Positions 13,509-59,917 of a DNA stretch of 64,000 nt are shown piece after piece. Source of the stretch: an uncultured Candidatus Saccharibacteria bacterium (GTDB taxonomy: Bacteria > Patescibacteriota > WWE3 > UBA101185 > UBA10185). The notes beneath the pieces were generated by a model that worked only from the letters and a program-made list of their open reading frames with translations, searched no databases and was not told the origin of the DNA. The first letter of the stretch is position 1; each line of letters starts with the position of its first letter. The position numbers were made by a program, and so were the translations under genes. The DNA lies in assembly GCA_964510435.1 (NCBI GenBank), contig CAZEBU010000001.1, forward strand, positions 144,791 to 208,790, given 5' to 3'.

Positions 13509-16181
13509 TCAGCTGATATCTCCTGAGCTTTTTTCGTCACCACTAATAGTGAACGTGCCTCCCTCTACACTTGGTTTTTCAGATCTGGGAGGAAGCGGCA
13601 TGGTAGGAACGTTATCATGCTTATTCACTACCTGGGAACCTTGATCTCCCTGCTCCTCTTTTTGAGGAGGAGATGGAGGAGGAGAAGGAGGAGGAGGAAC
13701 ATCCTCTATAATATTATTAGTAGGTTCATGCTTATCTTTGCTCCGTCCGAATAAACTTCCTATGCTTGCTCCGATCTTTTTCACGGCACTCCCTGCCATT
13801 TTAGGAGCATCTTTTGCGTCGCCTTGATTGATAGCACCCGGTTTTTTGATCTCCGTGGTTGCCTCCTCGCTCTGCTTTTTTTGATCGTCAAGTACAGCCT
13901 GCATACCACCACTTGCTTCTTCTTTACCTTTATCCTTTTCTTCTACACCGTCTCCTAAGACTTGAACTTTTACATCCGGTTCGTCCGCCGGCTTAGACTC
14001 AAGCACCTTTTCACCAACTGGCCCTTTCTTTTCTTCCTCTTCCTGCGGGGGAGGGGGCGAAGGTGGTGCTGGCGGTGCAGGCGGCGCCACAGGCTCCGGA
14101 GGAGGAGGTGGAGGCGTCGGTGGTGCCGCGGCGGGCTCCGGCGGCGAAGATACCTCCGGTGACGGCTGTTGTGGGGGAAGTGTTACTGGCGAGCCATCTT
14201 TCTTGTCATCCTTCCATCCGGGAATGGTTACCCCGGAATCCGACTGTGGTTGCGGTACCGGTTCTTTAATTGGAACCTCAGGTTTAGGCTTGTCCGAATC
14301 AAAACTGGTGATAGGTTTGTAAACAGGTCTTTTTTCTGGCGGCTTTATTAATCCTTCTTCCCTAAGCCTCAGCAATTCCTCAGGATCGGTGGTAATCAGT
14401 TTATGCTCTGACTGAGAAGCTTTGATTTTCATGGCAACGTGGTTTGTACCGGCAAAAAAGAGTCCTTCACCAATATCGGCGGCCAGTAATAACCTTCTTT
14501 CTCCTTCTGAGAGGTAAAATATTTCTGATACACGATCAATGGCGGCGGGGTGTTGTTTTAAAAGTATCTGAATCGAGGAATTTGTCACAATAGCCTTTCC
14601 ATAGTCAGAACTTAAAAAGTCGTCAACATCCTGAGAGATGGTAGTCAATCCTAAATAATACTTGCGCGCTCTCTTGGCTATCCCGTAAATAAATCTGGCA
14701 CTATCTTCGTTTTGCATCAAAACCCAAGCCTCCTCTACGATGAGGATCCTTTTCTTTAGATCGCGGCGGATCTTCGTCCAAATGTAATCAAGAATAATGT
14801 AGAAAGCTACCGGTCTTAATACCTCATCTTCAATATTCTTGGTGGAAAAGACGGTCATCTTATTGTCGATATCAACTGTCGACTGAGAATCAAAAATACC
14901 TGCCATAGATCCTCGAATATATTTTTCCAGCCTGTCCGACATACCCTTTGCTTCACTTTCCTGAGCGCCTAACAGAACCTTGTACAGATCCTCCATTATG
15001 GGGGGTTCCCTTTGCATCTGCGTCTCAGGATCAGTGGTAATACCTTTAATTCTGTAGGTCTCTATCAAAGCTCTGTCCAAAATGGCCTCTTCGGTAGGAT
15101 TTAGCTCTCCTAGCATTAACTTAAGCAGAGTATGTAGGGACAACAACTTTTGCCCAAGCTCGTTTTCACCTTCAACAACTACGCCGGACAAGTCAAAGGG
15201 GTTTATCTTATGATCCGAGCTGGGTGAAAAGTCAATATAATTGCCACCTACTGCTTCACACAAAAGCCGGTATTCCTCCTCGGGGTCAATGATCATCACT
15301 TCAGCTCCGAAGATCATTAAACGCAGAGCCTCTAATTTTACATAATAAGATTTACCTGCTCCGGATTTAGCAAAAATAACGGAATTAGCATTTTCCATTG
15401 AAAACCTATCAAAGATGACCAATGAGCCGTTATGCATATTTATGCCGTACATCACTCCTTCATCAGAGGTTAGATCAGAAGAAGTAAAGGGAAAGGTAGT
15501 CGCCAAACTTGTCGTATCCATATTTCTGGTAATGAGTAACTTATCCGAGGCCATAGGCAAGGTTGATTGAAATGCTTCTTCCATTTGCAGGGTGGCAGGT
15601 TTAGAAATTAATAGCAGTGAGCCTAAGGTAGATTCCAATCTACTAGTGACCGTTTCCAGTTCTTCGAGTGAGTCTGTCGTAATGGTAATATAAAAAGAAA
15701 ATTGGAAATACTTCTCTACACCTTTAACTAACTGCTCTTGTAGGGCTTGTGCGTCTTCCAAAGCGGCGCGTACAACAGGGTCCGTCACCCTCCCCTTTTC
15801 TCTATCAGATAGTTCGGTGGCCTCCAACTCGGTGATCTTCCTTCGCAAATCATCCAAGATCATTTTTGCTTTCACGGGATAGTAGAACATGGATAGATCC
15901 AAGGAGTGGTCAAAATTAATGATGGGAGAAAGCCAGTTAGCACCTACGAACCTGGGATATCCCGAGATAAATATTGTTCGATAATAATTATTACCGATCT
16001 TTAAATGATTAAAATCCACCTCTATGGCAGAGGGGGCAATAATATCTCTAACATTAAGCATACCCTCCGCGAGGATACTAGCTGCCGTTTTGCCCGTTTC
16101 TTTGCCCGTTTCTTGAGGCTGTGCAGAAGTAGAAGGAGATTCCTGCTTTTTCTTTTTTCCAAACATTTTAAATAAGTTCAT
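13509..16181 (-). CDS. VirB4/TrbE/TraC-family type IV secretion ATPase with a long C-terminal proline-rich disordered extension
   Basis: Walker A FAKSGAGKSYY. Walker B ILIVEEAWVLM. VirB4 signature RKYYLGLTTISQ (R-K...TQ). N-terminal VirB4-type region DIIAPSAIEVDFNHLKIGNNYYRTIFISGYPRFVGANWL. The C-terminal ~250 aa are P/E/K-rich (PPTPPPPPPEPVAPPAPPAPPSPPPP). Confidence 0.8.
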   Translation of the reverse strand: MNLFKMFGKKKKQESPSTSAQPQETGKETGKTAASILAEGMLNVRDIIAPSAIEVDFNHLKIGNNYYRTIFISGYPRFVGANWLSPIINFDHSLDLSMFYYPVKAKMILDDLRRKITELEATELSDREKGRVTDPVVRAALEDAQALQEQLVKGVEKYFQFSFYITITTDSLEELETVTSRLESTLGSLLLISKPATLQMEEAFQSTLPMASDKLLITRNMDTTSLATTFPFTSSDLTSDEGVMYGINMHNGSLVIFDRFSMENANSVIFAKSGAGKSYYVKLEALRLMIFGAEVMIIDPEEEYRLLCEAVGGNYIDFSPSSDHKINPFDLSGVVVEGENELGQKLLSLHTLLKLMLGELNPTEEAILDRALIETYRIKGITTDPETQMQREPPIMEDLYKVLLGAQESEAKGMSDRLEKYIRGSMAGIFDSQSTVDIDNKMTVFSTKNIEDEVLRPVAFYIILDYIWTKIRRDLKKRILIVEEAWVLMQNEDSARFIYGIAKRARKYYLGLTTISQDVDDFLSSDYGKAIVTNSSIQILLKQHPAAIDRVSEIFYLSEGERRLLLAADIGEGLFFAGTNHVAMKIKASQSEHKLITTDPEELLRLREEGLIKPPEKRPVYKPITSFDSDKPKPEVPIKEPVPQPQSDSGVTIPGWKDDKKDGSPVTLPPQQPSPEVSSPPEPAAAPPTPPPPPPEPVAPPAPPAPPSPPPPQEEEEKKGPVGEKVLESKPADEPDVKVQVLGDGVEEKDKGKEEASGGMQAVLDDQKKQSEEATTEIKKPGAINQGDAKDAPKMAGSAVKKIGASIGSLFGRSKDKHEPTNNIIEDVPPPPSPPPSPPQKEEQGDQGSQVVNKHDNVPTMPLPPRSEKPSVEGGTFTISGDEKSSGDIS

Positions 16182-16182
16182 A

Positions 16183-16884
16183 TTATTCTTCCACTATAGC
16201 CGGGTTGACCACAGCCGTTTTATAATCTTCTATGTTTGTACGAATTCTCTGTCCATGCACTGAGCTGGGATTATAAATATCAAAATATAACTCAACTAAT
16301 TCCTGGGTGGTCATCTGCCTGGCTCGGACACCTATACGGTTGAATTCCTTTATCATGTGATCGAGTTTGGGGTAGAGTTTAATTTCAGCCTCTTTTAAAG
16401 CTTTGTCAACATTAACTGCGACTCTCTTGTGATGTTTACCAAAGAGTTTAATAAAAAAATCAAAAGGACCGGATCCCGGTTCTCGTTCTGACGTTGCCCC
16501 AGAAGGTACAACAACATAAAAGTTTTTGTCCAATACTTCGTTGTTCTTAATGGTATCCTGCACAAACTTCCTGTAGGACTCAGCCTGCATTTTCAACAAC
16601 GGGTCTTCGATCCTCTGTTCCACCCTGTGTACCTTCTCAATATACTTTGTTATATCCAGTCTCTTGGATCTTATGACCACCTGAACAGGGAAGGTTATAG
16701 AGTTTAACAACATAGAAAAAGCCGCAATAGTGGCATCTTGTTCAATTTCGGATAAAAGATCAAAATTTACCGCGGTGGTTTGCAAAACTCCACATACTGT
16801 ACCGCTTTTTAGGATAACGAGATCGTTTTTAATTTCTTGAACGTCTAAATGTTCTTGTGTACTGGCAGTTATATTTGTAGCCAT
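16183..16884 (-). CDS. Hypothetical soluble protein co-transcribed with the VirB4-like ATPase
   Basis: 233 aa, no TM. Sits 1 nt upstream of the VirB4-like gene and 3 nt downstream of the membrane protein gene, so operon context only. Confidence 0.4.
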   Translation of the reverse strand: MATNITASTQEHLDVQEIKNDLVILKSGTVCGVLQTTAVNFDLLSEIEQDATIAAFSMLLNSITFPVQVVIRSKRLDITKYIEKVHRVEQRIEDPLLKMQAESYRKFVQDTIKNNEVLDKNFYVVVPSGATSEREPGSGPFDFFIKLFGKHHKRVAVNVDKALKEAEIKLYPKLDHMIKEFNRIGVRARQMTTQELVELYFDIYNPSSVHGQRIRTNIEDYKTAVVNPAIVEE

Positions 16885-16887
16885 GAC

Positions 16888-18468
16888 TTAAACCAACCTT
16901 CCAATAATTTCTATTGGGGGCAGGACTTCCCCCTTAACCTCTACAGTGATTATATCAAAGGTTAAACCTTCTACGCTTGAGCCAACCTCTAGAGTGTACA
17001 TACCTTTCACTAAAGAGGTGCTAATAGCAAACTGCCCGATGGTGTTGGTTTTTAGCGCCCTTACGGATTCGCCTTTGTGGTTTTTAATGAGCAAAACAAC
17101 TCCGGTGATGGCTTCTCCATCTTGGTTCTTCACCACCCCGGAAACTATATTAGGCTCTTCGGTAATAGGTTGCATTTTTGCGTAGGTGGGTTTTTTAGGT
17201 TGTGTGTCTTCGGGAAGCGGTTCTTCTTTTTCCTTAAGACGATTCTGCAACTCGTGGACCTGTTTTTGCAAAGTTGTATAGTCGGTGTTAGCTCGTTTCT
17301 GCTCTTCCTCAAGTTTTCTAATTAATTCAATTTTCTTTTGTTTCTCCTCATCCGAAGCCTGCGATTCATCAAGTTCCCTCTTGAGTTTTTCGATCTCGTT
17401 GGTCATCTTCTCGTTTTCTTCTTTTACCTTCCTAACTACATCTTGTGCTTCGGAGATGTCTTTCTTCTCATCCGGAACCGACAGCGGAACAACTCCAAAT
17501 TCATTATCTCCCCTTATCTGGTCCAGCAGTTTTCTCAGCTGGTCAGTTTTCTCATCAATATCCTTTTGAATATCCATTTCTTCGCTCGTTTGTAAAACTT
17601 TCTCGCCTCTTACAGGCAAAATAAGCTGTCCTTCAGAGGGAAGCATACTGGTAAACTTTCGGCCAATATGCATATCCGGGGTAATCGGAGATACAGTGAA
17701 TGTGTCCGGAAACGGCATGGCAGGTAGTGGTTTGGGTTTTGGCTTTCTCCTCTTTTTCTTTTCTTTAGGTTTTGCCGGCACTTCCAAGGTGGGCTTTGCC
17801 AGAGGAGGTATCTCCTCCTGAGGTTTTTCAACTTCCTTAACCGGCTCCTCAGGTTTTGTCTCTTCCATTGGTGCTTCCTCCTCCGCTTTTTCTTTTTCGG
17901 GCAACTCATACTCAACGTATTCTTCGGCATATTCCTCTTCCTCTGCGACTTCAACAGCGGTGGCAACAGGAGCAAAGGCTTGTCTCACTTTAAGAATGTA
18001 CTCCTTTTCGGGTATATCAAGCTTATCCTCAACTTGCGTCTGCTGTTGCAGTTCCAAATACTCTTCTAATTTCCTTCTGCTAGAAGTAGGTGCTAAAGTG
18101 ATAAGTTCTTGCTTGACCATAGCAATATTCTGATAAGTGAAGGCGGCCGGTAAAACGGGATCTTTTTTCCAAACTCTTTGCGTAGGTGAGTAGACACTTC
18201 TGAAAAAGTTGACGAACCATTCGTCCATACCTCTTTCCTGTATAGGGACAAATGCCAAGGCCAACCCTGCTAAAACAAAGGATATAGATACAGGATACCT
18301 AAAAACACCCACCAGGGAGATGTAAGCAAGATAAGAAATGATCCCTGCGACCAACAAATAAGTAAACTGGCGCATGGTTAGGTCACCGATCAACTTAAAT
18401 TCAACATCCATTATATTTTGCGGGACTGCGTGTTGTTTATGAGTTTTTTGTGCTTCTCTTATGGGCAT
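16888..18468 (-). CDS. T4SS-associated membrane protein: N-terminal two-TM module (VirB3-like by position), coiled-coil/E-K-P-rich linker, C-terminal carboxypeptidase-regulatory-like beta domain
   Basis: TM hairpin (FTYLLVAGIISYLAYISLVGVF / VSISFVLAGLALAFVPI). Long E/K-rich coiled coil and a KKKRRKPKPKP patch. C-terminal VVKNQDGEAITGVVLLIKNHKGESVRALKTNTIGQFAI is CarbopepD_reg-like. Lies upstream of the VirB4-like gene. Confidence 0.45.
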   Translation of the reverse strand: MPIREAQKTHKQHAVPQNIMDVEFKLIGDLTMRQFTYLLVAGIISYLAYISLVGVFRYPVSISFVLAGLALAFVPIQERGMDEWFVNFFRSVYSPTQRVWKKDPVLPAAFTYQNIAMVKQELITLAPTSSRRKLEEYLELQQQTQVEDKLDIPEKEYILKVRQAFAPVATAVEVAEEEEYAEEYVEYELPEKEKAEEEAPMEETKPEEPVKEVEKPQEEIPPLAKPTLEVPAKPKEKKKRRKPKPKPLPAMPFPDTFTVSPITPDMHIGRKFTSMLPSEGQLILPVRGEKVLQTSEEMDIQKDIDEKTDQLRKLLDQIRGDNEFGVVPLSVPDEKKDISEAQDVVRKVKEENEKMTNEIEKLKRELDESQASDEEKQKKIELIRKLEEEQKRANTDYTTLQKQVHELQNRLKEKEEPLPEDTQPKKPTYAKMQPITEEPNIVSGVVKNQDGEAITGVVLLIKNHKGESVRALKTNTIGQFAISTSLVKGMYTLEVGSSVEGLTFDIITVEVKGEVLPPIEIIGRLV

Positions 18469-18539: not shown

Positions 18540-21500
18540 TTATTCTAACTCAACAAATAATATTAGATCCTGGTTTAGCTTGCCACCAATAGTTATAATT
18601 CCATCTTGGTAATTAAAATTATTGCTGCCTTTAACCATCTGCATGCCAAAAGGCAAACTAAAACTGTAGTCAAAATCGTCATTGTTCGTACCAGCCTGTT
18701 TCTGCCAGGCCAAAGAGTAATTACCCTGATCTTTAGTTACGGACAGCTCAACCGGTAAATCATAGTAAAATATAAGTTTAACATTGCTAGAAGGCTTTAG
18801 CACAAAACTGGTCTCAAAAGAAATGTACGGCTCAACCTCGGAAATAATGATCTCGTCAAAAATATCATCCTCAATGGTCAAGTCATAAATTACCTTTCCC
18901 CCCGTCAGTTTGGCACCCTTTTGTGCCAACACACGCACATAGTTAGTGTAAGGACCCCCCGGCCAGGATTCGTCAACACCCGTATGAACATAATCTAATG
19001 TCAGCTCCGCTCTCAAAAGGCCGTCTCTGGTCTTGCTGGTTATCTTATATTCCATAGCATTTTCTACATAATAATTTGCCTTAGTTCCCCCAAGATTTGC
19101 ATTAACCACTTGCAGATAATCCCCGTCGGTACGAACAAGACTGCCTGCCCATTCCCTTTCCAGCAGGGAGGCGTTGAGGGGACTGGCAAAAAGATAGATT
19201 TGTAAATGTCTTTGGTTGAGAGCATTCCCCAATACTCCCACAAACTGAGGAGTTTCCCCGCTGTCAAGTGTAAAAAGGGTTTCGATCAATTTACTGCCCA
19301 AAACCGTTAAAAACTGCCTTTTTTGATCTGAACCTTCTTGATAATCATAAGAAGCATGAAACTGAGTTCTTTCGTATAAGTTTTGAGCGGTAACTTCCTC
19401 GTTGTAAGAGGTTAAAAACAAAGGACCTGTAACTCCCAGAAGATTTTGTACTAAATGCAGATCTGCAGCTACCACACCGTCTATATTCTCACCGCTTAGC
19501 ATAAAAAAGAGATTTTTTATAGCATCCGCACTACGTGTAAAGTCGGGATCCCAGTTGGCATTTCTTATATACAACCTATCCTCAACTAACATGTCTCCTA
19601 TAGGCTTGGGCGGTGTAACTCTGATATTTCTCACATCTATTTGGCCATCAGGATTATATATGTCATCGATGGTTATCTCTTCAATTTTTCCCTGGTTTAA
19701 ATACAAAAACGCGTAAGACCCTATAAAACCTCCTGTGGGTCTTATTTCGTTGTTGTTTTGGAAGAGGATCAAGTATTTCTTGGGGCCATCAAACCCTAAA
19801 AGATCAGGGAGGTCAGAAGACACCGCCCAAGCTAAATCCAATCCTTCTTGTGTCGCAGATAGCACTTCCTCATAAATTCCAATATCTTTTCTTGCTATTT
19901 CCGGTAGCCTGTCCTTATTTACTTCGTTAAAATCAGCCAAAGCTCTCTGCAAATTATTCTTAGCATTTGAGATGTGCAGTTTTGTTTCGTCAAGAGCGGC
20001 TGGATCAAAAGAATTTTCTGACTCGGGTTTTAAAGAATCCCAGATAATTTTAAGGGGGGCCGCTGAACTAGAAACATCGTAGGCCACATTTGAGAAAGAC
20101 GCCACTGAACTTAAAAGCTTGGAGGTAGCTTCGTGGTTTTCCTCCTTACCAAATACTTTGAAAAGCCAATCCAGGCTTGAAAAATACCTGTTTGCTTTTA
20201 AAAAACCCTCCTGGGCAAGCTCTGCATTATCCGAAGCTTGCTGCAGGTCAAAGCGCGCAATAAGTTCCGGTATGCCAACCAAAGTATCCATGGCTTTTTT
20301 CGAGGAAGAATAGGTATTAAACAGGGGCATAAAAATAAATACCAAAAGGAAGGAAAGGAAAATAACAAAAAACAGGGATATTTTGCTGGCCAAACTTATG
20401 CGGGGAAAGCTGATCCCTAAGTTTAGTTTAAATCTATTTTTGATCTTGATCTTCGGTAAGTCTTTTGTATCTGCAATTTGCCGGCTATCATAATTTTGTT
20501 GAACTTCAGTAGCCTCAGCAATTTTTTCTACAGGCAACTCTTTTACCTGGACATCATATAAGGTGGTAAGTTGTTCCTGAGTTTTATCTCTTTTTTTCTC
20601 AATTAGTTTTGCCTGCTTAAAACTCTGCTCATTTACTTCATATCCCAACCAGGTAAGGGTCTTTATCACACCTTGCTTAAAAGTGGTTCTCGGCTGCCAT
20701 TTTAGATCTCCTAAGTTAGATGTATCCGGTACAAATGACGCGGGGGAAAGCAGGGGCTCTTCCCCTTCGAACTTTACCTCTATTTGCCTGTCGGCTAGGC
20801 TTTTCACTAAAAAAGCCGTCTCTAAAGCCGATGTAGGTTCTTTATGAACAAGCGTGTAAATTTTCCCTTCTGTATTATCGTTTAACAAGCCTTTGATCAT
20901 TCCTGCCACGGCATCGTCGATATAAAGGTAGTACTCCTTAACGGAACCGTCCCCTTTAACCTTAAGTCCTTTATTTTGCGTGAGGTCGCTGAGAAACTTC
21001 CCTAGATACCCACTGGAAAACAAGTTCATCCTCGGACCGTACACCTCCGGGAGTCTTACAATTCTCACATTGGTGCTATTTCGTTTATAGTATTCCCAAA
21101 CCAAGGCCTCTGCGTATCTTTTTGCTTCGGCTAGGCTATATCTTCGTTCCTGCATCTTTGATTTGCCAAAGTAGGCATCCAAATTTAACTGGGAGATCAT
21201 GCCCCCGTAAACGTCAATGGTTGAGACCAATAAGAATTTTGCCTCTGAACTTTTTGCTAAATCCAATAAGTTTTTTGTCCCTACGGCATTTGTTAACAGA
21301 GAATCAAGATCCAGATCATCCTTGCTATAAAGGTATTCCTCTAAGCCTGCCAGGTGAAATATATAGTCAACACTTTCTATTTCAGGCGGTAGCCCCTGAT
21401 TAATATCCACATCATATAGAGCAAATTTGGGGTTTTTCAGTAAATGGTTTATATGAACATCCTTGCCTGTACTGAAATTGTCAAGAATAATCACCCGCGC

Positions 21501-21611
21501 CTCTTTCTGAAGCAACACTTCTGCCAAATGAGAGCCAATAAAACCGGCGCCTCCTGCTATTAAAATAGTTGGAGCCAAAGGTGATTTTTTTATAGTTTTT
21601 TTACTTTGCAT
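18540..21611 (-). CDS. Fusion protein: N-terminal NAD(P)-binding SDR-extended epimerase/dehydratase-like domain, single TM, and a ~650-aa extracytoplasmic domain of unknown function
   Basis: Rossmann motif ILIAGGAGFIGSHLAEVLL and an epimerase-like ~330 aa. TM ISLFFVIFLSFLLVFIFMPLF at about aa 400. A large C-terminal domain with no recognised motif. Confidence 0.6.
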   Translation of the reverse strand: MQSKKTIKKSPLAPTILIAGGAGFIGSHLAEVLLQKEARVIILDNFSTGKDVHINHLLKNPKFALYDVDINQGLPPEIESVDYIFHLAGLEEYLYSKDDLDLDSLLTNAVGTKNLLDLAKSSEAKFLLVSTIDVYGGMISQLNLDAYFGKSKMQERRYSLAEAKRYAEALVWEYYKRNSTNVRIVRLPEVYGPRMNLFSSGYLGKFLSDLTQNKGLKVKGDGSVKEYYLYIDDAVAGMIKGLLNDNTEGKIYTLVHKEPTSALETAFLVKSLADRQIEVKFEGEEPLLSPASFVPDTSNLGDLKWQPRTTFKQGVIKTLTWLGYEVNEQSFKQAKLIEKKRDKTQEQLTTLYDVQVKELPVEKIAEATEVQQNYDSRQIADTKDLPKIKIKNRFKLNLGISFPRISLASKISLFFVIFLSFLLVFIFMPLFNTYSSSKKAMDTLVGIPELIARFDLQQASDNAELAQEGFLKANRYFSSLDWLFKVFGKEENHEATSKLLSSVASFSNVAYDVSSSAAPLKIIWDSLKPESENSFDPAALDETKLHISNAKNNLQRALADFNEVNKDRLPEIARKDIGIYEEVLSATQEGLDLAWAVSSDLPDLLGFDGPKKYLILFQNNNEIRPTGGFIGSYAFLYLNQGKIEEITIDDIYNPDGQIDVRNIRVTPPKPIGDMLVEDRLYIRNANWDPDFTRSADAIKNLFFMLSGENIDGVVAADLHLVQNLLGVTGPLFLTSYNEEVTAQNLYERTQFHASYDYQEGSDQKRQFLTVLGSKLIETLFTLDSGETPQFVGVLGNALNQRHLQIYLFASPLNASLLEREWAGSLVRTDGDYLQVVNANLGGTKANYYVENAMEYKITSKTRDGLLRAELTLDYVHTGVDESWPGGPYTNYVRVLAQKGAKLTGGKVIYDLTIEDDIFDEIIISEVEPYISFETSFVLKPSSNVKLIFYYDLPVELSVTKDQGNYSLAWQKQAGTNNDDFDYSFSLPFGMQMVKGSNNFNYQDGIITIGGKLNQDLILFVELE

Positions 21612-55276: not shown

Positions 55277-55349
55277 TCAGTATAACAAACAGCCTAACTC
55301 ATTGTGCGGATATTGACATAGTCCACAAGGAAAATTATTATCTAAGCGT

Positions 55350-55748: not shown

Positions 55749-56015
55749 ATGATTACTTTTATTGACTTCTACGCTGACTGGTGTGGCCCTTGTAAGATCA
55801 TGGCTCCCGTTTTCGATGAGGTTAAAAAAGAATATAAAGATAAGGTAGACTTCAAAAAAGTAGACGTGGAAGTCGATTCTGCCATGGCTACAAAATTTGG
55901 GGTTATGAGCATTCCCACCTTCGTTATTCTGGATGGCGATAAAGAGTTAGACAGAAAACTTGGTGCAATGCCAAAAGAGACCTTAACAAATTGGCTCGAT
56001 TCACATCTTAATTAA
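55749..56015 (+). CDS. trxA: Thioredoxin (short, 88 aa)
   Basis: FYADWCGPCKIMAPVFDEV. No in-frame alternative start upstream, because the frame hits a TAG at 55683. Confidence 0.85.
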   Translation: MITFIDFYADWCGPCKIMAPVFDEVKKEYKDKVDFKKVDVEVDSAMATKFGVMSIPTFVILDGDKELDRKLGAMPKETLTNWLDSHLN

Positions 56016-57086: not shown

Positions 57087-57356
57087 ATGTCCAAGAACTT
57101 GAGGGTATCTTTCCCAAAAAAATGTGTTGGCTGCGAACTCTGCGTCTTGCAAATCCAACGCCAAATGAAAAAGGTGGGTCTGGAGGGTTCGCTAATTAGA
57201 ATATTGAAAAAGAAAAAGGAAAACAGTGATTTCTTAGAGTATTCTATTGATATAGACCCAAGAGTTAACGAGTTTGATATACAAAAAATAAAGGATATTT
57301 GCCCCACAGAGGTTTTTGAAATTTTAGAGGAAGAAAATAATGGGCTCATCGAGTAA
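57087..57356 (+). CDS. Putative single-cluster [4Fe-4S] ferredoxin-like protein
   Basis: CVGCELC (CxxCxxC) plus a distal ICPTEVF (C-P), which is the four-ligand pattern of monocluster ferredoxins. 89 aa. Translationally coupled to the downstream AOR-N-like gene. Confidence 0.4.
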   Translation: MSKNLRVSFPKKCVGCELCVLQIQRQMKKVGLEGSLIRILKKKKENSDFLEYSIDIDPRVNEFDIQKIKDICPTEVFEILEEENNGLIE

Positions 57357-58182
57357 AAAGGTTTTGTTCCTAAATTTAAAAAAACAAGAGAGCGAAGTAA
57401 AAACTTTTCCCGATCTAAAGATGTATATAGGCGGTGTTGCACTAGGCTTAAAGTTATACGAACTTTTCTCGGAAAAAGATCCGGTAATATTTTCTGTAGG
57501 TCCCTTAAACGGTTTTTTTCCCTATGCCTCAAAAACTTCTGTTGTTTTTAATGCTAGCGGTGTAGTTGAGGATTTATGCTTGGGGGGTTACCTTTCCACT
57601 CGTATAAAATTTTCCGATCTCGACAGCATAGTTCTCTTAGGAAAATCTCCGGATGACATCGTTGTGGAATTAAATAACGAAGATGCATCTTATAAAAATT
57701 CGGACACTGATCCCGATAGCTTAGGTCTCCCAGGTAAGAGAAGTGTTATAAATGTCTACCAAAAGAAACTAGTTCTAGACGAATATTTCTCCGAACCGGA
57801 AGAAATGCTAGCACATAAACTGGGTAAGAAAAACTTTAGGGGATTAACCATTAGTGGTACAAAAACCTACCCACCTAAAAATTTGGCTAAATACCAGGAA
57901 GTCTACAATTCTCTTCTGGAAAAGACCTCTTTGTTAAGCGTGGAGAAAGGATTTTTCCCATCCTGCTCGGGTTGTCCTATGGGGTGTGAAAATTCAAAAG
58001 ATGGGGAATTAGGCGGAAATGTGCTCCTACACAGTTTGGTGGCCTGTGGGTTTGCAGAAAATATATATACCGATGTTGGTACAATATTTTCCTGCTTGAA
58101 CGTTTTAGGATATGATTACACTCACGAAGATATTGAAAACCTACCGCATCTTATCCAAAATACTTTAAGAAGTTTATCTTGA
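57340..58182 (+). CDS. Mini aldehyde:ferredoxin oxidoreductase-like protein: AFOR N-terminal domain plus the CxxCxxxC Fe-S motif, lacking the C-terminal tungstopterin domains
   Basis: VLFLNLKKQESEVKTF...IGGVALGLKLYE...DPVIFSVGPLNG...LDSIVLLGKSPDDIVVELNNED parallels the P. furiosus AOR N-domain (IRVNLSTGDIKVEEY...LGSRGLAIYLL...NKLIIAAGPLTG...YDAIVVEGKAEKPVYIYINDEH). CSGCPMGCEN matches AOR CYACPIGCGR. Only 280 aa. Confidence 0.5.
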   Translation: MGSSSKKVLFLNLKKQESEVKTFPDLKMYIGGVALGLKLYELFSEKDPVIFSVGPLNGFFPYASKTSVVFNASGVVEDLCLGGYLSTRIKFSDLDSIVLLGKSPDDIVVELNNEDASYKNSDTDPDSLGLPGKRSVINVYQKKLVLDEYFSEPEEMLAHKLGKKNFRGLTISGTKTYPPKNLAKYQEVYNSLLEKTSLLSVEKGFFPSCSGCPMGCENSKDGELGGNVLLHSLVACGFAENIYTDVGTIFSCLNVLGYDYTHEDIENLPHLIQNTLRSLS

Positions 58183-58840: not shown

Positions 58841-59917
58841 ATGACTTATATAGACGTGAAAGTTAAAAGAGAAAAACCCAAGAAGAAAAAGTCTATCTTT
58901 ACCAAAATTCTGGTGACCATAATAGTTCCGGGATTACTCATTGGAGGAGGAGTAGTGGTTGCAAAAAAGGGTGTGCACTGGTTTGATCCTATTTCTATTG
59001 TTGCCACTGTTTCAGCGTCGGATCTGAGGGAGACTGACGGCAGGACAAATTTATTACTTTTGGGGTCGGATAAAAGAATGGCGGGAACTATCGAGTCTGA
59101 ACTCACAGACACTCTTCTTGTAGTCTCTATAGGAAGGGTTGAGCATGATGTTGTTCTGATATCCCTACCTAGAGATCTCTGGGTCAAGGATTCGCGAGGC
59201 GCAAAGTCAAAGATTAACGCTGTTTATACTTTGAATAAAGAAGATCAATCAGATATTGTCACAGGAGGAGAAGCCATCATGCAGGTGGCCAGCGATGTCC
59301 TGGGGGTACCTGTGCATTATTATTCAGTAATAAATTTTGAGTTATTTAAAGATGTGGTTGATATTTTAGGTGGTGTAGAAGTTGAAGTAGAAAGAAGTTT
59401 TACCGATTACAGCTACCCTGTGGAGGGTAAGGAAAACGCCCCGCTCTCAGAAAGATACGAAACTATAGAATTTAAGGAAGGCCTGCAAAACATGGACGGA
59501 GATGCGGCCCTTAAATTCGTGCGCTCTAGAAAAGGTACAAACGGAGAAAGTACCGATTTTGCCAGGTCGGAAAGACAACAAAAAGTGATCTCGGCTATAA
59601 AAAACAAGGCTCTTTCCATAGAAACTCTTATTAATCCCATAAAAATAAAAGAACTATACGATATTTACAGCAATGAAATTGATACAAACATTATGTTTAA
59701 TGACGTACAGAGTTTTTACTTACTATCCCAACAAGTTGATTTTAATCGCATAACCTCAATTGTCTTGGACGATAGAAGTGCTGCAGACGAAGGTGGTTTA
59801 TTATATTCCCCTGTTGATGATGAACTTTACGGTGGCGCGTATGTGCTCATCCCCAAAGTTGGGGATTTCTCCCAACTGCACGCATATGTACAAAGATATC
59901 TATTTAGCCAAAAGTAA
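58841..59917 (+). CDS. LytR-CpsA-Psr (LCP) family cell-envelope polymer transferase
   Basis: N-terminal TM. LLLLGSDKRMAGT...DTLLVVSI...VVLISLPRDLWV core. 358 aa. Confidence 0.8.
   Translation: MTYIDVKVKREKPKKKKSIFTKILVTIIVPGLLIGGGVVVAKKGVHWFDPISIVATVSASDLRETDGRTNLLLLGSDKRMAGTIESELTDTLLVVSIGRVEHDVVLISLPRDLWVKDSRGAKSKINAVYTLNKEDQSDIVTGGEAIMQVASDVLGVPVHYYSVINFELFKDVVDILGGVEVEVERSFTDYSYPVEGKENAPLSERYETIEFKEGLQNMDGDAALKFVRSRKGTNGESTDFARSERQQKVISAIKNKALSIETLINPIKIKELYDIYSNEIDTNIMFNDVQSFYLLSQQVDFNRITSIVLDDRSAADEGGLLYSPVDDELYGGAYVLIPKVGDFSQLHAYVQRYLFSQK

Follow-up and report, generated by a model that had tools for sequence, protein, structure and literature searches.

Within a window of 64,000 nucleotides (the whole stretch of DNA that was analysed), taken from contig CAZEBU010000001.1 of an uncultured Candidatus Saccharibacteria bacterium, two small genes lie between the glyceraldehyde-3-phosphate dehydrogenase (GAPDH) gene gap and the triose-phosphate isomerase (TIM) gene tpiA. 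The first encodes a ferredoxin-like protein (fdx), and the second encodes a protein related to the tungsten aldehyde:ferredoxin oxidoreductases (AORs), referred to here as the mini-AOR. The original prediction, made from the letters of the window, described the pair as translationally coupled, placed it in the position normally held by the phosphoglycerate kinase (PGK) gene pgk, and suggested either a relic or a novel electron-transfer accessory of lower glycolysis. The open reading frame (ORF) map confirmed the presence of the pair between gap and tpiA, and the accessory role remains the best available reading. We propose, at slightly better than even odds (roughly 0.54), that the pair is a functional two-subunit Fe-S module derived from a "ferredoxin-like subunit plus AOR catalytic subunit" pair, and that it serves as a tungsten-free electron-transfer or redox-sensing relay and not as a replacement for PGK. 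This proposal builds on what was observed of the anatomy and homology of the pair, on the cluster ligands that it keeps and the pterin domains that it has lost, and on evidence of purifying selection, conserved synteny and a series of protein sizes at one locus.

The mini-AOR was matched by the Pfam family AFOR_N (PF02730) with 57.7 bits (gathering score 29.8; E = 1.8e-15) over residues 7-119 and profile positions 2-127 of 199, a result that upheld the predicted N-terminal AOR-domain identity. The same Pfam scan gave no match to AFOR_C (PF01314) in the mini-AOR at E<=1, and domains 2 and 3 were deleted in alignment, as had been predicted for the pterin-binding domains. Searches of PDB sequences with phmmer and with a family profile recovered AOR-family enzymes only (1aor, 1b25, WOR5, BamB and AorB). 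Three of the alignments are referred to by label: A1, with 25 mini-AOR sequences; A2, with 71 sequences including full-length relatives; and A3, with 22 fdx orthologues. A first AlphaFold2 (AF2) model, built from 25 close homologues, was confident for residues 1-198 only, with a pLDDT below 50 in the cluster region. A second model, built from A2 with its full-length AORs, was confident for the whole chain (pLDDT 96.0, pTM 0.93). Foldseek with this second model returned nine matches at E<=0.001, all of them AOR-family proteins (best 1aor, E = 3.7e-15, TMq 0.64), while the next match had an E value of 0.04. Collectively, these data identify the 280-aa protein as a member of the AOR superfamily, with domain 1 and a predicted [4Fe-4S] cage retained and the pterin-holding domains removed.

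The four ligands of the AOR cluster are preserved in the mini-AOR. In a MAFFT bridge alignment of mini, mid-length, canonical and PfAOR sequences, C209, C212 and C216 fell on the AOR CxxCxxxC motif, corresponding to PfAOR C288, C291 and C295; PfAOR numbering is approximate throughout. In the same alignment, C236, within the motif HSLVAC, was aligned to the PfAOR motif DSAGLC494, and the C-terminal LGYDYTHEDIE to PfAOR LGWDFTTEDY. The earlier claim that the Fe-S motif is retained was therefore borne out: CSGCPMGC aligns to the AOR cluster motif, and the invariant C236 supplies the fourth Cys. C209, C212 and C236 were invariant in all 71 sequences of A2, and C216 and K65 were kept in at least 90% of them. 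By size class, all four cluster Cys were present in 77/77 canonical, 41/45 mid-length and 30/30 mini sequences. At the K65 column, corresponding to PfAOR R76, Lys was found in 30/30 mini, 40/45 mid-length and 77/77 canonical sequences. Only five Cys are conserved in the mini-AOR, namely the four predicted cluster ligands and C252.

The residues that separate these ligands in full-length enzymes are gone. The mini-AOR lacks approximately PfAOR residues 306-483 through an internal deletion and also lacks the final ~70 residues, for a loss of ~260 residues, nearly the whole of domains 2 and 3; a short C-terminal helix is kept. Since sequence from either side of the missing segment is kept on one chain, the segment was lost from within the gene, and the gene was not split in two. 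A split enzyme, in which the pterin domains would be supplied in trans and the complex would still be a W/Mo enzyme, therefore has next to no likelihood in our estimation. AOR-family enzymes are modular, and fragments with AFOR_C only exist (P0431, probably truncated at a contig end), but these offer no direct support; the conserved pterin-phosphate Arg is replaced in the mini-AOR, and no AFOR_C gene was found in ~80 neighbourhoods. No molybdenum or tungsten cofactor genes were found among the 20 large window ORFs scanned.

Columns near the cofactor-binding motifs differed between the size classes. The PfAOR R182 column, a pterin-phosphate-contacting Arg, was Arg in 77/77 canonical sequences and Phe in 41/45 mid-length and 30/30 mini sequences. 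The adjacent column 183 was His in 77/77 canonical sequences, Ser in 39/45 mid-length sequences, and Thr (19) or Ser (5) in mini sequences. At the PfAOR D338 column, canonical sequences carried Glu (74) or Asp (3) and mid-length sequences Trp (28) or Tyr (12); the column is deleted in the mini class. Other columns set the shorter proteins apart. His filled the H262 column in all 30 mini sequences and in 42 of 45 mid-length ones, whereas Asp, Ala and Asn predominated in the 77 canonical AORs; H262 is a derived residue that these two shorter classes have in common. The F250 column was Phe in 30/30 mini and 43/45 mid-length sequences, with Leu, Ala and Ile predominating in canonical ones. C252 was Cys in 30/30 mini sequences, Ala in 36/45 mid-length sequences, and Ala in 56 and Cys in 16 of the 77 canonical sequences; it was missing from a still smaller micro class. 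R88, E223, C252, Y258 and D264 were invariant in the mini class only.

Compared with the tungsten AOR family (PfAOR 1AOR, FOR 1B25, WOR5 6X1O, BamB 4Z3W and AorB 8C0Z), the mini-AOR shares the domain-1 fold, the CxxCxxxC...C ligands and a Lys or Arg at the R76 position. It differs in the removal of the segments of domains 2 and 3 that hold both pterin-binding motifs in their native context, in the Arg-to-Phe change at the R182 column, and in the addition of the class-specific R88, C252 and D264 together with the H262 common to mid-length proteins. Two defining features of an AOR enzyme, AFOR_C and the pterin-binding Arg, are missing from the mini-AOR, and the protein therefore does not belong under the name aldehyde:ferredoxin oxidoreductase; it would act in the manner of the Fe-S portion of an AOR, and not of the whole enzyme. 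The NCBI family name is [quoted passage not shown], and JGI annotation often reads "aldehyde:ferredoxin oxidoreductase"; automatic labels of the latter kind provide no basis for aldehyde or glyceraldehyde 3-phosphate (GAP) oxidation in metabolic reconstructions.

The ferredoxin-like motif CxxCxxC...CP that had been noted upstream was also substantiated. C13, G15, C16, C19, C72 and P73 of fdx were read from the sequence and were invariant in the 22 orthologues of A3, and the ligand pattern was conserved in 72 orthologues. The window protein scored below the Pfam Fer4 gathering score (17.5 versus 21.1). One orthologue, from locus L079, passed Pfam Fer4_15 "single cluster" (23.3 versus 22.4), and those from L077 and L073 gave no match. 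A profile search yielded no significant PDB sequence match for fdx. Its N-terminus, M-x-K-x-L...KC-x-G-C-x-x-C, was weakly like those of the Fe-S subunits of two-subunit AORs, at a non-significant level (E 0.08-1.1).

The arrangement of the pair resembles that of the two-subunit AOR complexes (WOR5 6X1O_B, AorA 8C0Z_C, BamC and 9MQX_E), in which a Cys-rich ferredoxin-like gene likewise lies directly upstream and is coupled. In those complexes the partner is a polyferredoxin with 3-4 clusters, whereas here it is a protein of 76-116 aa with a predicted single cluster. By analogy with WOR5, AorAB and BamBC, fdx and the mini-AOR may form a heterodimer in which each protein would bind one [4Fe-4S] cluster, electrons would pass between the two clusters, and no tungsten would be bound. 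Since the domains that hold the tungsto-bispterin are lost, aldehyde oxidation of the AOR or GAPOR type is not expected.

To compare the constraint on the pair with that on neighbouring genes, dN/dS was estimated by the pairwise Nei-Gojobori method for pairs with unsaturated dS. The mini-AOR gave values of 0.026-0.093 and the ferredoxin values of 0.006-0.046, against 0.017-0.052 for gap, 0.039-0.071 for pgk and 0.053-0.151 for tpi. The fdx and mini-AOR pair is therefore constrained and functional, and is conserved as strongly as the glycolytic enzymes. These values, together with the 51 invariant columns of A1, are inconsistent with the suggestion that the pair is a relic. A decaying, truncated pseudo-enzyme without function is extremely improbable: the catalytic domains have been lost and further-reduced forms of 198-217 aa exist, but a length of ~280 aa is held steady in hundreds of clusters, and 70 species-level genomes carry both genes as unbroken ORFs.

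The pair was widely conserved among related genomes. At E<=1e-3, 391 homologues of the mini-AOR were found in a large protein database. The best 120 of the 391 were 272-289 aa long and carried AFOR_N only, and the named entries among these 120 were candidate division WWE3 or "Patescibacteria group". When each species was represented by a single genome, 70 loci were recovered, including that of the closed genome CP006914 (RAAC2_WWE3_1). Mapping of neighbours by tblastn revealed the near-universal order trx-gap-pgk-fdx-miniAOR-tpi-lytR-holA. The fdx gene was upstream of the mini-AOR in 69/69 loci with flanking sequence, tpi was downstream in 70/70, and, where the flank was long enough to tell, the thioredoxin gene trx almost always lay 5' of gap. 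Median spacing was -17 nt from fdx to the mini-AOR (76 loci), -1 nt from the mini-AOR to tpi (77 loci), -1 nt from pgk to fdx and 2 nt from tpi to lytR. Inserts of 0.25-2.6 kb were seen at the gap-to-pgk junction (L015, L051, L057, L060 and others), with pgk-fdx-mAOR-tpi-lytR remaining contiguous.

Within the window, the last 17 nt of fdx are shared with the start of the mini-AOR ORF, whose ATG is preceded at a distance of 8 nt by an AGAGGA site; this arrangement supports the predicted translational coupling of the two. Only 1 nt separates the mini-AOR stop codon from the tpiA start. The pair probably shares a transcript with tpiA, and in most relatives also with pgk, and its translation is probably coupled to theirs. 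No literature description of the mini-AOR family was found; "a ferredoxin oxidoreductase-like protein" has been mentioned among the electron carriers of WWE3 (Kantor et al. 2013, PMC3812714). The AOR superfamily itself is already known, but the pair appears to constitute an undescribed redox module, fixed in the WWE3 glycolytic operon.

Synteny extended to distant members. Of two loci with ~30% identical mini-AORs, L084 had the order trx-fdx-mAOR-tpi, with trx (L084:3372-3893) ending 6 nt 5' of fdx and neither gap nor pgk between them, and L085 had the order pgk-fdx-mAOR-tpi-lytR, with an fdx at L085:6784-6996 that the annotator had missed. Genes for a group-3b-like NiFe hydrogenase (L085:1176-5656, minus strand) are divergent from and adjoin this last cluster; they encode a large subunit, an Oxidored_q6 small subunit, an FAD/NAD/Fe-S subunit and a Fer4_22 protein. 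Metagenome-assembled genomes (MAGs) labelled "uncultured Candidatus Saccharibacteria bacterium" (L007, L009, L017, L018, L021 and many others) share the WWE3 locus and its synteny, and these labels are probably generic or wrong. No fusions of the mini-AOR with TIM or other partners were found among matches of 390-992 aa, all of which were ordinary or fragmentary AORs. The longest, P0223 (992 aa), has an unusual architecture that joins a full-length AOR and an OMP-decarboxylase/HUMPS-family domain in one protein.

The prediction that the pair stands in place of pgk was not sustained. Among 68 informative species-level loci, almost all of them from WWE3, pgk lay directly 5' of fdx in 59; it was absent, with gap abutting fdx, in nine (L007, L008, L009, L011, L012, L018, L064, L073 and L074), and two further loci were uninformative. 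In a neighbour-joining tree of fdx, mini-AOR and tpi, the window grouped with L007-L009, L064, L011 and L018, all without pgk. The next branch comprised L012, which lacks pgk, and L013, which bears it, and the whole group was nested among pgk-bearing lineages; L073 and L074 formed a separate, deep pgk-less branch. Thus, the position of the fdx/mini-AOR pair between pgk and tpiA is the ancestral one, and pgk was secondarily lost from the operon in the clade of the window, independently of L073/L074.

The whereabouts of pgk in the window genome were also considered. No pgk was detected in the window, either by tblastn with an approximate E. coli PGK query or by Pfam scans of 20 large ORFs. By Pfam, neither fdx nor the mini-AOR had similarity to PGK (PF00162), and no pgk remnant was found in the 445-nt gap-to-fdx spacer of L012. 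When the PGK of L013 was searched against 5.8 billion proteins, none of the best 120 matches could be tied to a contig of the window clade, and the two best matches came from canonical operons. In L017, fdx-mAOR-tpi was found with neither gap nor pgk within 5.7 kb upstream, which indicates that relocation does happen. Because TIM, GAPDH and PGK have been reported to be essentially universal in the candidate phyla radiation (CPR) (Jaffe et al. 2020, PMC7304191), a pgk elsewhere in the genome is the default expectation.

Where present in the WWE3 loci, PGK is short, ~320 aa against a Pfam model of 379 positions (L004:8762-9733, L020:4772-5734 and ~59 other loci), and typical bacterial PGKs have ~390-400 aa. 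The WWE3 proteins match the profile in 2-3 separate stretches, indicating internal deletions.

These results bear on the possibility of a GAPOR-like bypass or PGK substitute, in which the pair would oxidise GAP or carry the step from GAP to 3-phosphoglycerate and so replace pgk in the window genome. Like archaeal GAPOR, the mini-AOR belongs to the AOR superfamily, occurs in a glycolytic setting and has a ferredoxin partner. The pair comes straight after gap, with pgk missing, both in the window and in eight species-level relatives; no pgk was detected in the window, and none of the best 120 matches to the L013 PGK could be tied to a contig of this clade. However, the mini-AOR is without the catalytic domains of GAPOR and co-exists with GAPDH and mostly with PGK. 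It gave no match at E<=1 to the NCBIfam model GAPOR_Arch (NF040818, cutoff 1300), its only match being PRK09849 (32.5 bits), and the mid-length relatives reached 17.9-29.5 bits to GAPOR_Arch versus 67-92 bits to PRK09849. The suggested affinity to GAPOR was thus not supported. With the W-pterin domains deleted, the pterin-phosphate Arg changed to Phe, pgk standing beside the pair in most loci, the pgk-less state derived, the mini-AORs of the pgk-less clade keeping the same invariant residues as the others, and PGK described as essentially universal in CPR, we regard a substitute for PGK as very unlikely.

The relatives of the mini-AOR formed a series of sizes. A profile search of 1.84 billion representatives recovered ~46 clusters of 270-300 aa, followed by proteins of 538-554 aa and then by canonical AORs of 580-607 aa. 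The mid-length proteins (~45 clusters, with named members called "candidate division ..." or "Patescibacteria") carry both AFOR_N and AFOR_C and are the nearest full-length relatives. They occupy the same syntenic site, 3' of a CxxCxxC...CP ferredoxin of 78-79 aa (L077, L079 and L087); tpi is absent between the AOR-like gene and lytR in these three loci and present in every mini and micro context. AORs of ~580 aa are the next relatives of the mid-length proteins, with 28-34% identity, and the named ones belong to Firmicutes lineages, Treponema, Desulfonatronovibrio, Desulfonauticus and a Pseudomonadota MAG. In the micro class of 198-217 aa (P0188, P0190 and P0203), roughly 95 N-terminal residues remain, along with the cluster motif and the LG(Y/F)DYTHEELE helix. 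One of its members, P0190 (217 aa, L086:466-1119), lies in the order pgk-fdx(80 aa)-micro-tpi-lytR. Micro proteins are no longer matched by Pfam AFOR_N and are therefore annotated as hypothetical.

The occurrence of ~540-, 280- and 198-217-aa variants at one locus fits a stepwise reduction that would have spared the cluster site. In the simplest history, a ferredoxin and AOR pair lodged beside pgk, the pterin contacts would have degenerated first, and the pterin domains would then have been deleted, once or more, with the cluster cage and the ferredoxin partner kept throughout.

What the pair does is suggested by its neighbours and by its conserved residues. Our preferred guess, which is speculative, is that a redox signal linked to the ferredoxin pool, or thiol chemistry, may act on the neighbouring triose-phosphate enzymes or on thioredoxin through C252, H262, E263 and D264. 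This guess is prompted by residues close to the cluster segment that are invariant and particular to the class, and by the conserved trx in the gene string. Several points weigh against the two-subunit relay and its link to glycolysis. Cluster binding is predicted from the conserved Cys and from homology, and the mid-length proteins P0166, P0169 and P0171 appear out of step with a cluster-centred function, having lost all four cluster Cys beside an intact ferredoxin gene; the micro protein P0203 is without CxxCxxxC. The glycolytic link is a weak one, drawn from gene order. Since the region from UvrD to MurJ is syntenic as a whole across the group, and tpi and lytR lie as close together as the mini-AOR and tpi do, close packing is no specific sign of shared function. 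Finally, the invariant polar residues exceed the needs of simple electron transfer.

Some of the same evidence is consistent with a general electron carrier, serving for example PFOR or a group 3b hydrogenase, whose position reflects frozen synteny with no glycolytic role. The syntenic region across WWE3 and relatives includes unrelated genes that are equally tight (lytR, holA and sortase), WWE3 has been reported to possess PFOR and a 3b-type hydrogenase (PMC3812714), the L085 cluster adjoins hydrogenase genes, and the L017 unit stands apart from gap and pgk. However, the pair stays by pgk and/or tpi in every size class, down to 30% identity, despite changes in other neighbours. We therefore hold a general carrier to be possible, with considerable doubt.

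A catalytic role for the retained [4Fe-4S] cluster was also weighed. Here the cluster would act by Lewis-acid or radical chemistry on a phosphorylated or aldehydic metabolite of the triose-phosphate node, with the ferredoxin as reductant. The invariant K65, D78, R88, D95, K133, E223, N227, H262, E263, D264 and E266, several of them class-specific, are more than a plain carrier needs. All four canonical ligands are nevertheless kept, leaving no obvious open Fe site, and the protein matches AORs only, with no similarity to known catalytic-cluster families. This role is accordingly judged improbable.

The relay proposed here has parallels in other systems. In NuoG/Nqo3 of complex I, a molybdopterin-enzyme fold has lost its pterin and is kept as an Fe-S-carrying subunit. 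The logic would be the same, that of a pterin enzyme reduced under selection to a cofactor-less Fe-S subunit, although NuoG belongs to a different superfamily (Mo-bisPGD) and keeps the empty domain, whereas the mini-AOR had the domain deleted. Ferredoxin:thioredoxin reductase (FTR) offers a looser analogy, as a small [4Fe-4S] protein that works with ferredoxin, with trx conserved in the present gene string. Membership of the FTR family was rejected: the CPC-x16-CPC-x8-CHC motif and any homology are absent, and the one extra Cys (C252) is not a redox-active pair.

GAPDH, PGK and TIM have been described as the one metabolic core that is essentially universal in CPR bacteria (PMC7304191), and two uncharacterised Fe-S proteins wedged in this core across WWE3/Katanobacteria suggest an unrecognised redox input to the central carbon metabolism of ultra-small, fermentative and probably symbiotic cells. 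A more ambitious version holds that the pair is an unrecognised redox subunit of the CPR triose-phosphate module, through which the ferredoxin pool (PFOR/hydrogenase) would influence how active GAPDH, PGK or TIM is, or the state of its thiols, or which, in the pgk-less clade, would take part in a PGK-independent route from GAP to 3-phosphoglycerate. On either form of this version, which we consider unlikely, an AOR-derived [4Fe-4S] protein would have been repurposed as a new kind of glycolytic accessory or catalyst. For metalloenzyme evolution, the one-site series runs from ~580-aa canonical AORs through 540-aa proteins with substituted pterin contacts to proteins of 280 and ~200 aa, in which a tungsten enzyme appears to have been stripped to its Fe-S module. 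Such a series would be the physically deleted counterpart of the cofactor-less NuoG domain.

Features of the locus, with those of three mid-length loci, are collected in the table. The flanking gap and tpiA genes are bona fide members of their families. A scan for promoters and terminators gave counts no higher than the shuffle expectation; the sole notable promoter-like site was an 11/12 match at 55313-55341, 5' of a small membrane ORF ahead of trx.

Table. Positions of the fdx/mini-AOR pair and its neighbours in the window, and of mid-length AOR-like genes at the corresponding site in three relatives.
Feature	Position	Strand	Evidence or gene order
trx (Thioredoxin)	55749-56015	+	Pfam Thioredoxin, 87.5 bits
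gap, type I GAPDH, 333 aa	56043-57044	+	NCBIfam GAPDH-I, 401.7 bits (cutoff 367.2); Pfam Gp_dh_N and Gp_dh_C
Ferredoxin-like ORF (fdx), 89 aa	57087-57356	+	CxxCxxC...CP read from sequence
CxxCxxC motif of fdx (C13-C19), codons tgt...tgc...tgc	57123-57143	+	Invariant in fdx alignment A3
Cys72-Pro73 of fdx, predicted fourth cluster ligand	57300-57305	+	Invariant in alignment A3
AGAGGA, Shine-Dalgarno-like site within the fdx 3' end	57326-57331	+	Sequence, 8 nt ahead of mini-AOR ATG
mini-AOR, 280 aa	57340-58182	+	Pfam AFOR_N; AF2 and Foldseek
AOR domain-1 portion of mini-AOR, residues 1-~198	57340-57933	+	Pfam AFOR_N, PDB sequence matches, both AF2 models confident
C209-x2-C212-x3-C216, cluster motif of mini-AOR	57964-57987	+	Alignment to PfAOR C288/C291/C295
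C236 of mini-AOR, predicted fourth cluster ligand	58045-58047	+	Alignment to PfAOR C494
C252 of mini-AOR, fifth Cys	58093-58095	+	Invariant in 280-aa class only
T261-H262-E263-D264-x-E266 motif of mini-AOR	58120-58137	+	Invariant in alignment A1
tpiA, 218 aa	58184-58840	+	Pfam TIM, 130 bits
lytR (LytR-CpsA-Psr), next gene in packed string; context, outside the module	58841-59917	+	Pfam, 119 bits
Mid-length AOR538	L077:1135-2751		pgk-fdx-AOR538-lytR-holA
Mid-length AOR550	L079:10001-11653		gap-x-fdx-AOR550-lytR-holA-sortase...S20-MurJ
Mid-length AOR545	L087:10001-11638		trx-gap-...-pgk-fdx-AOR545-lytR-holA...S20-MurJ

Two further groups of genes were observed elsewhere in the window. The minus strand at 13509-18468 encodes a TraG-like P-loop ATPase of 890 aa together with a PrgI-family protein of 526 aa, suggesting a type IV secretion or conjugation-like cluster. 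At 18540-21611, also on the minus strand, lies the gene for a 1023-aa protein in which an NAD-dependent epimerase/dehydratase domain is fused to DUF4012.

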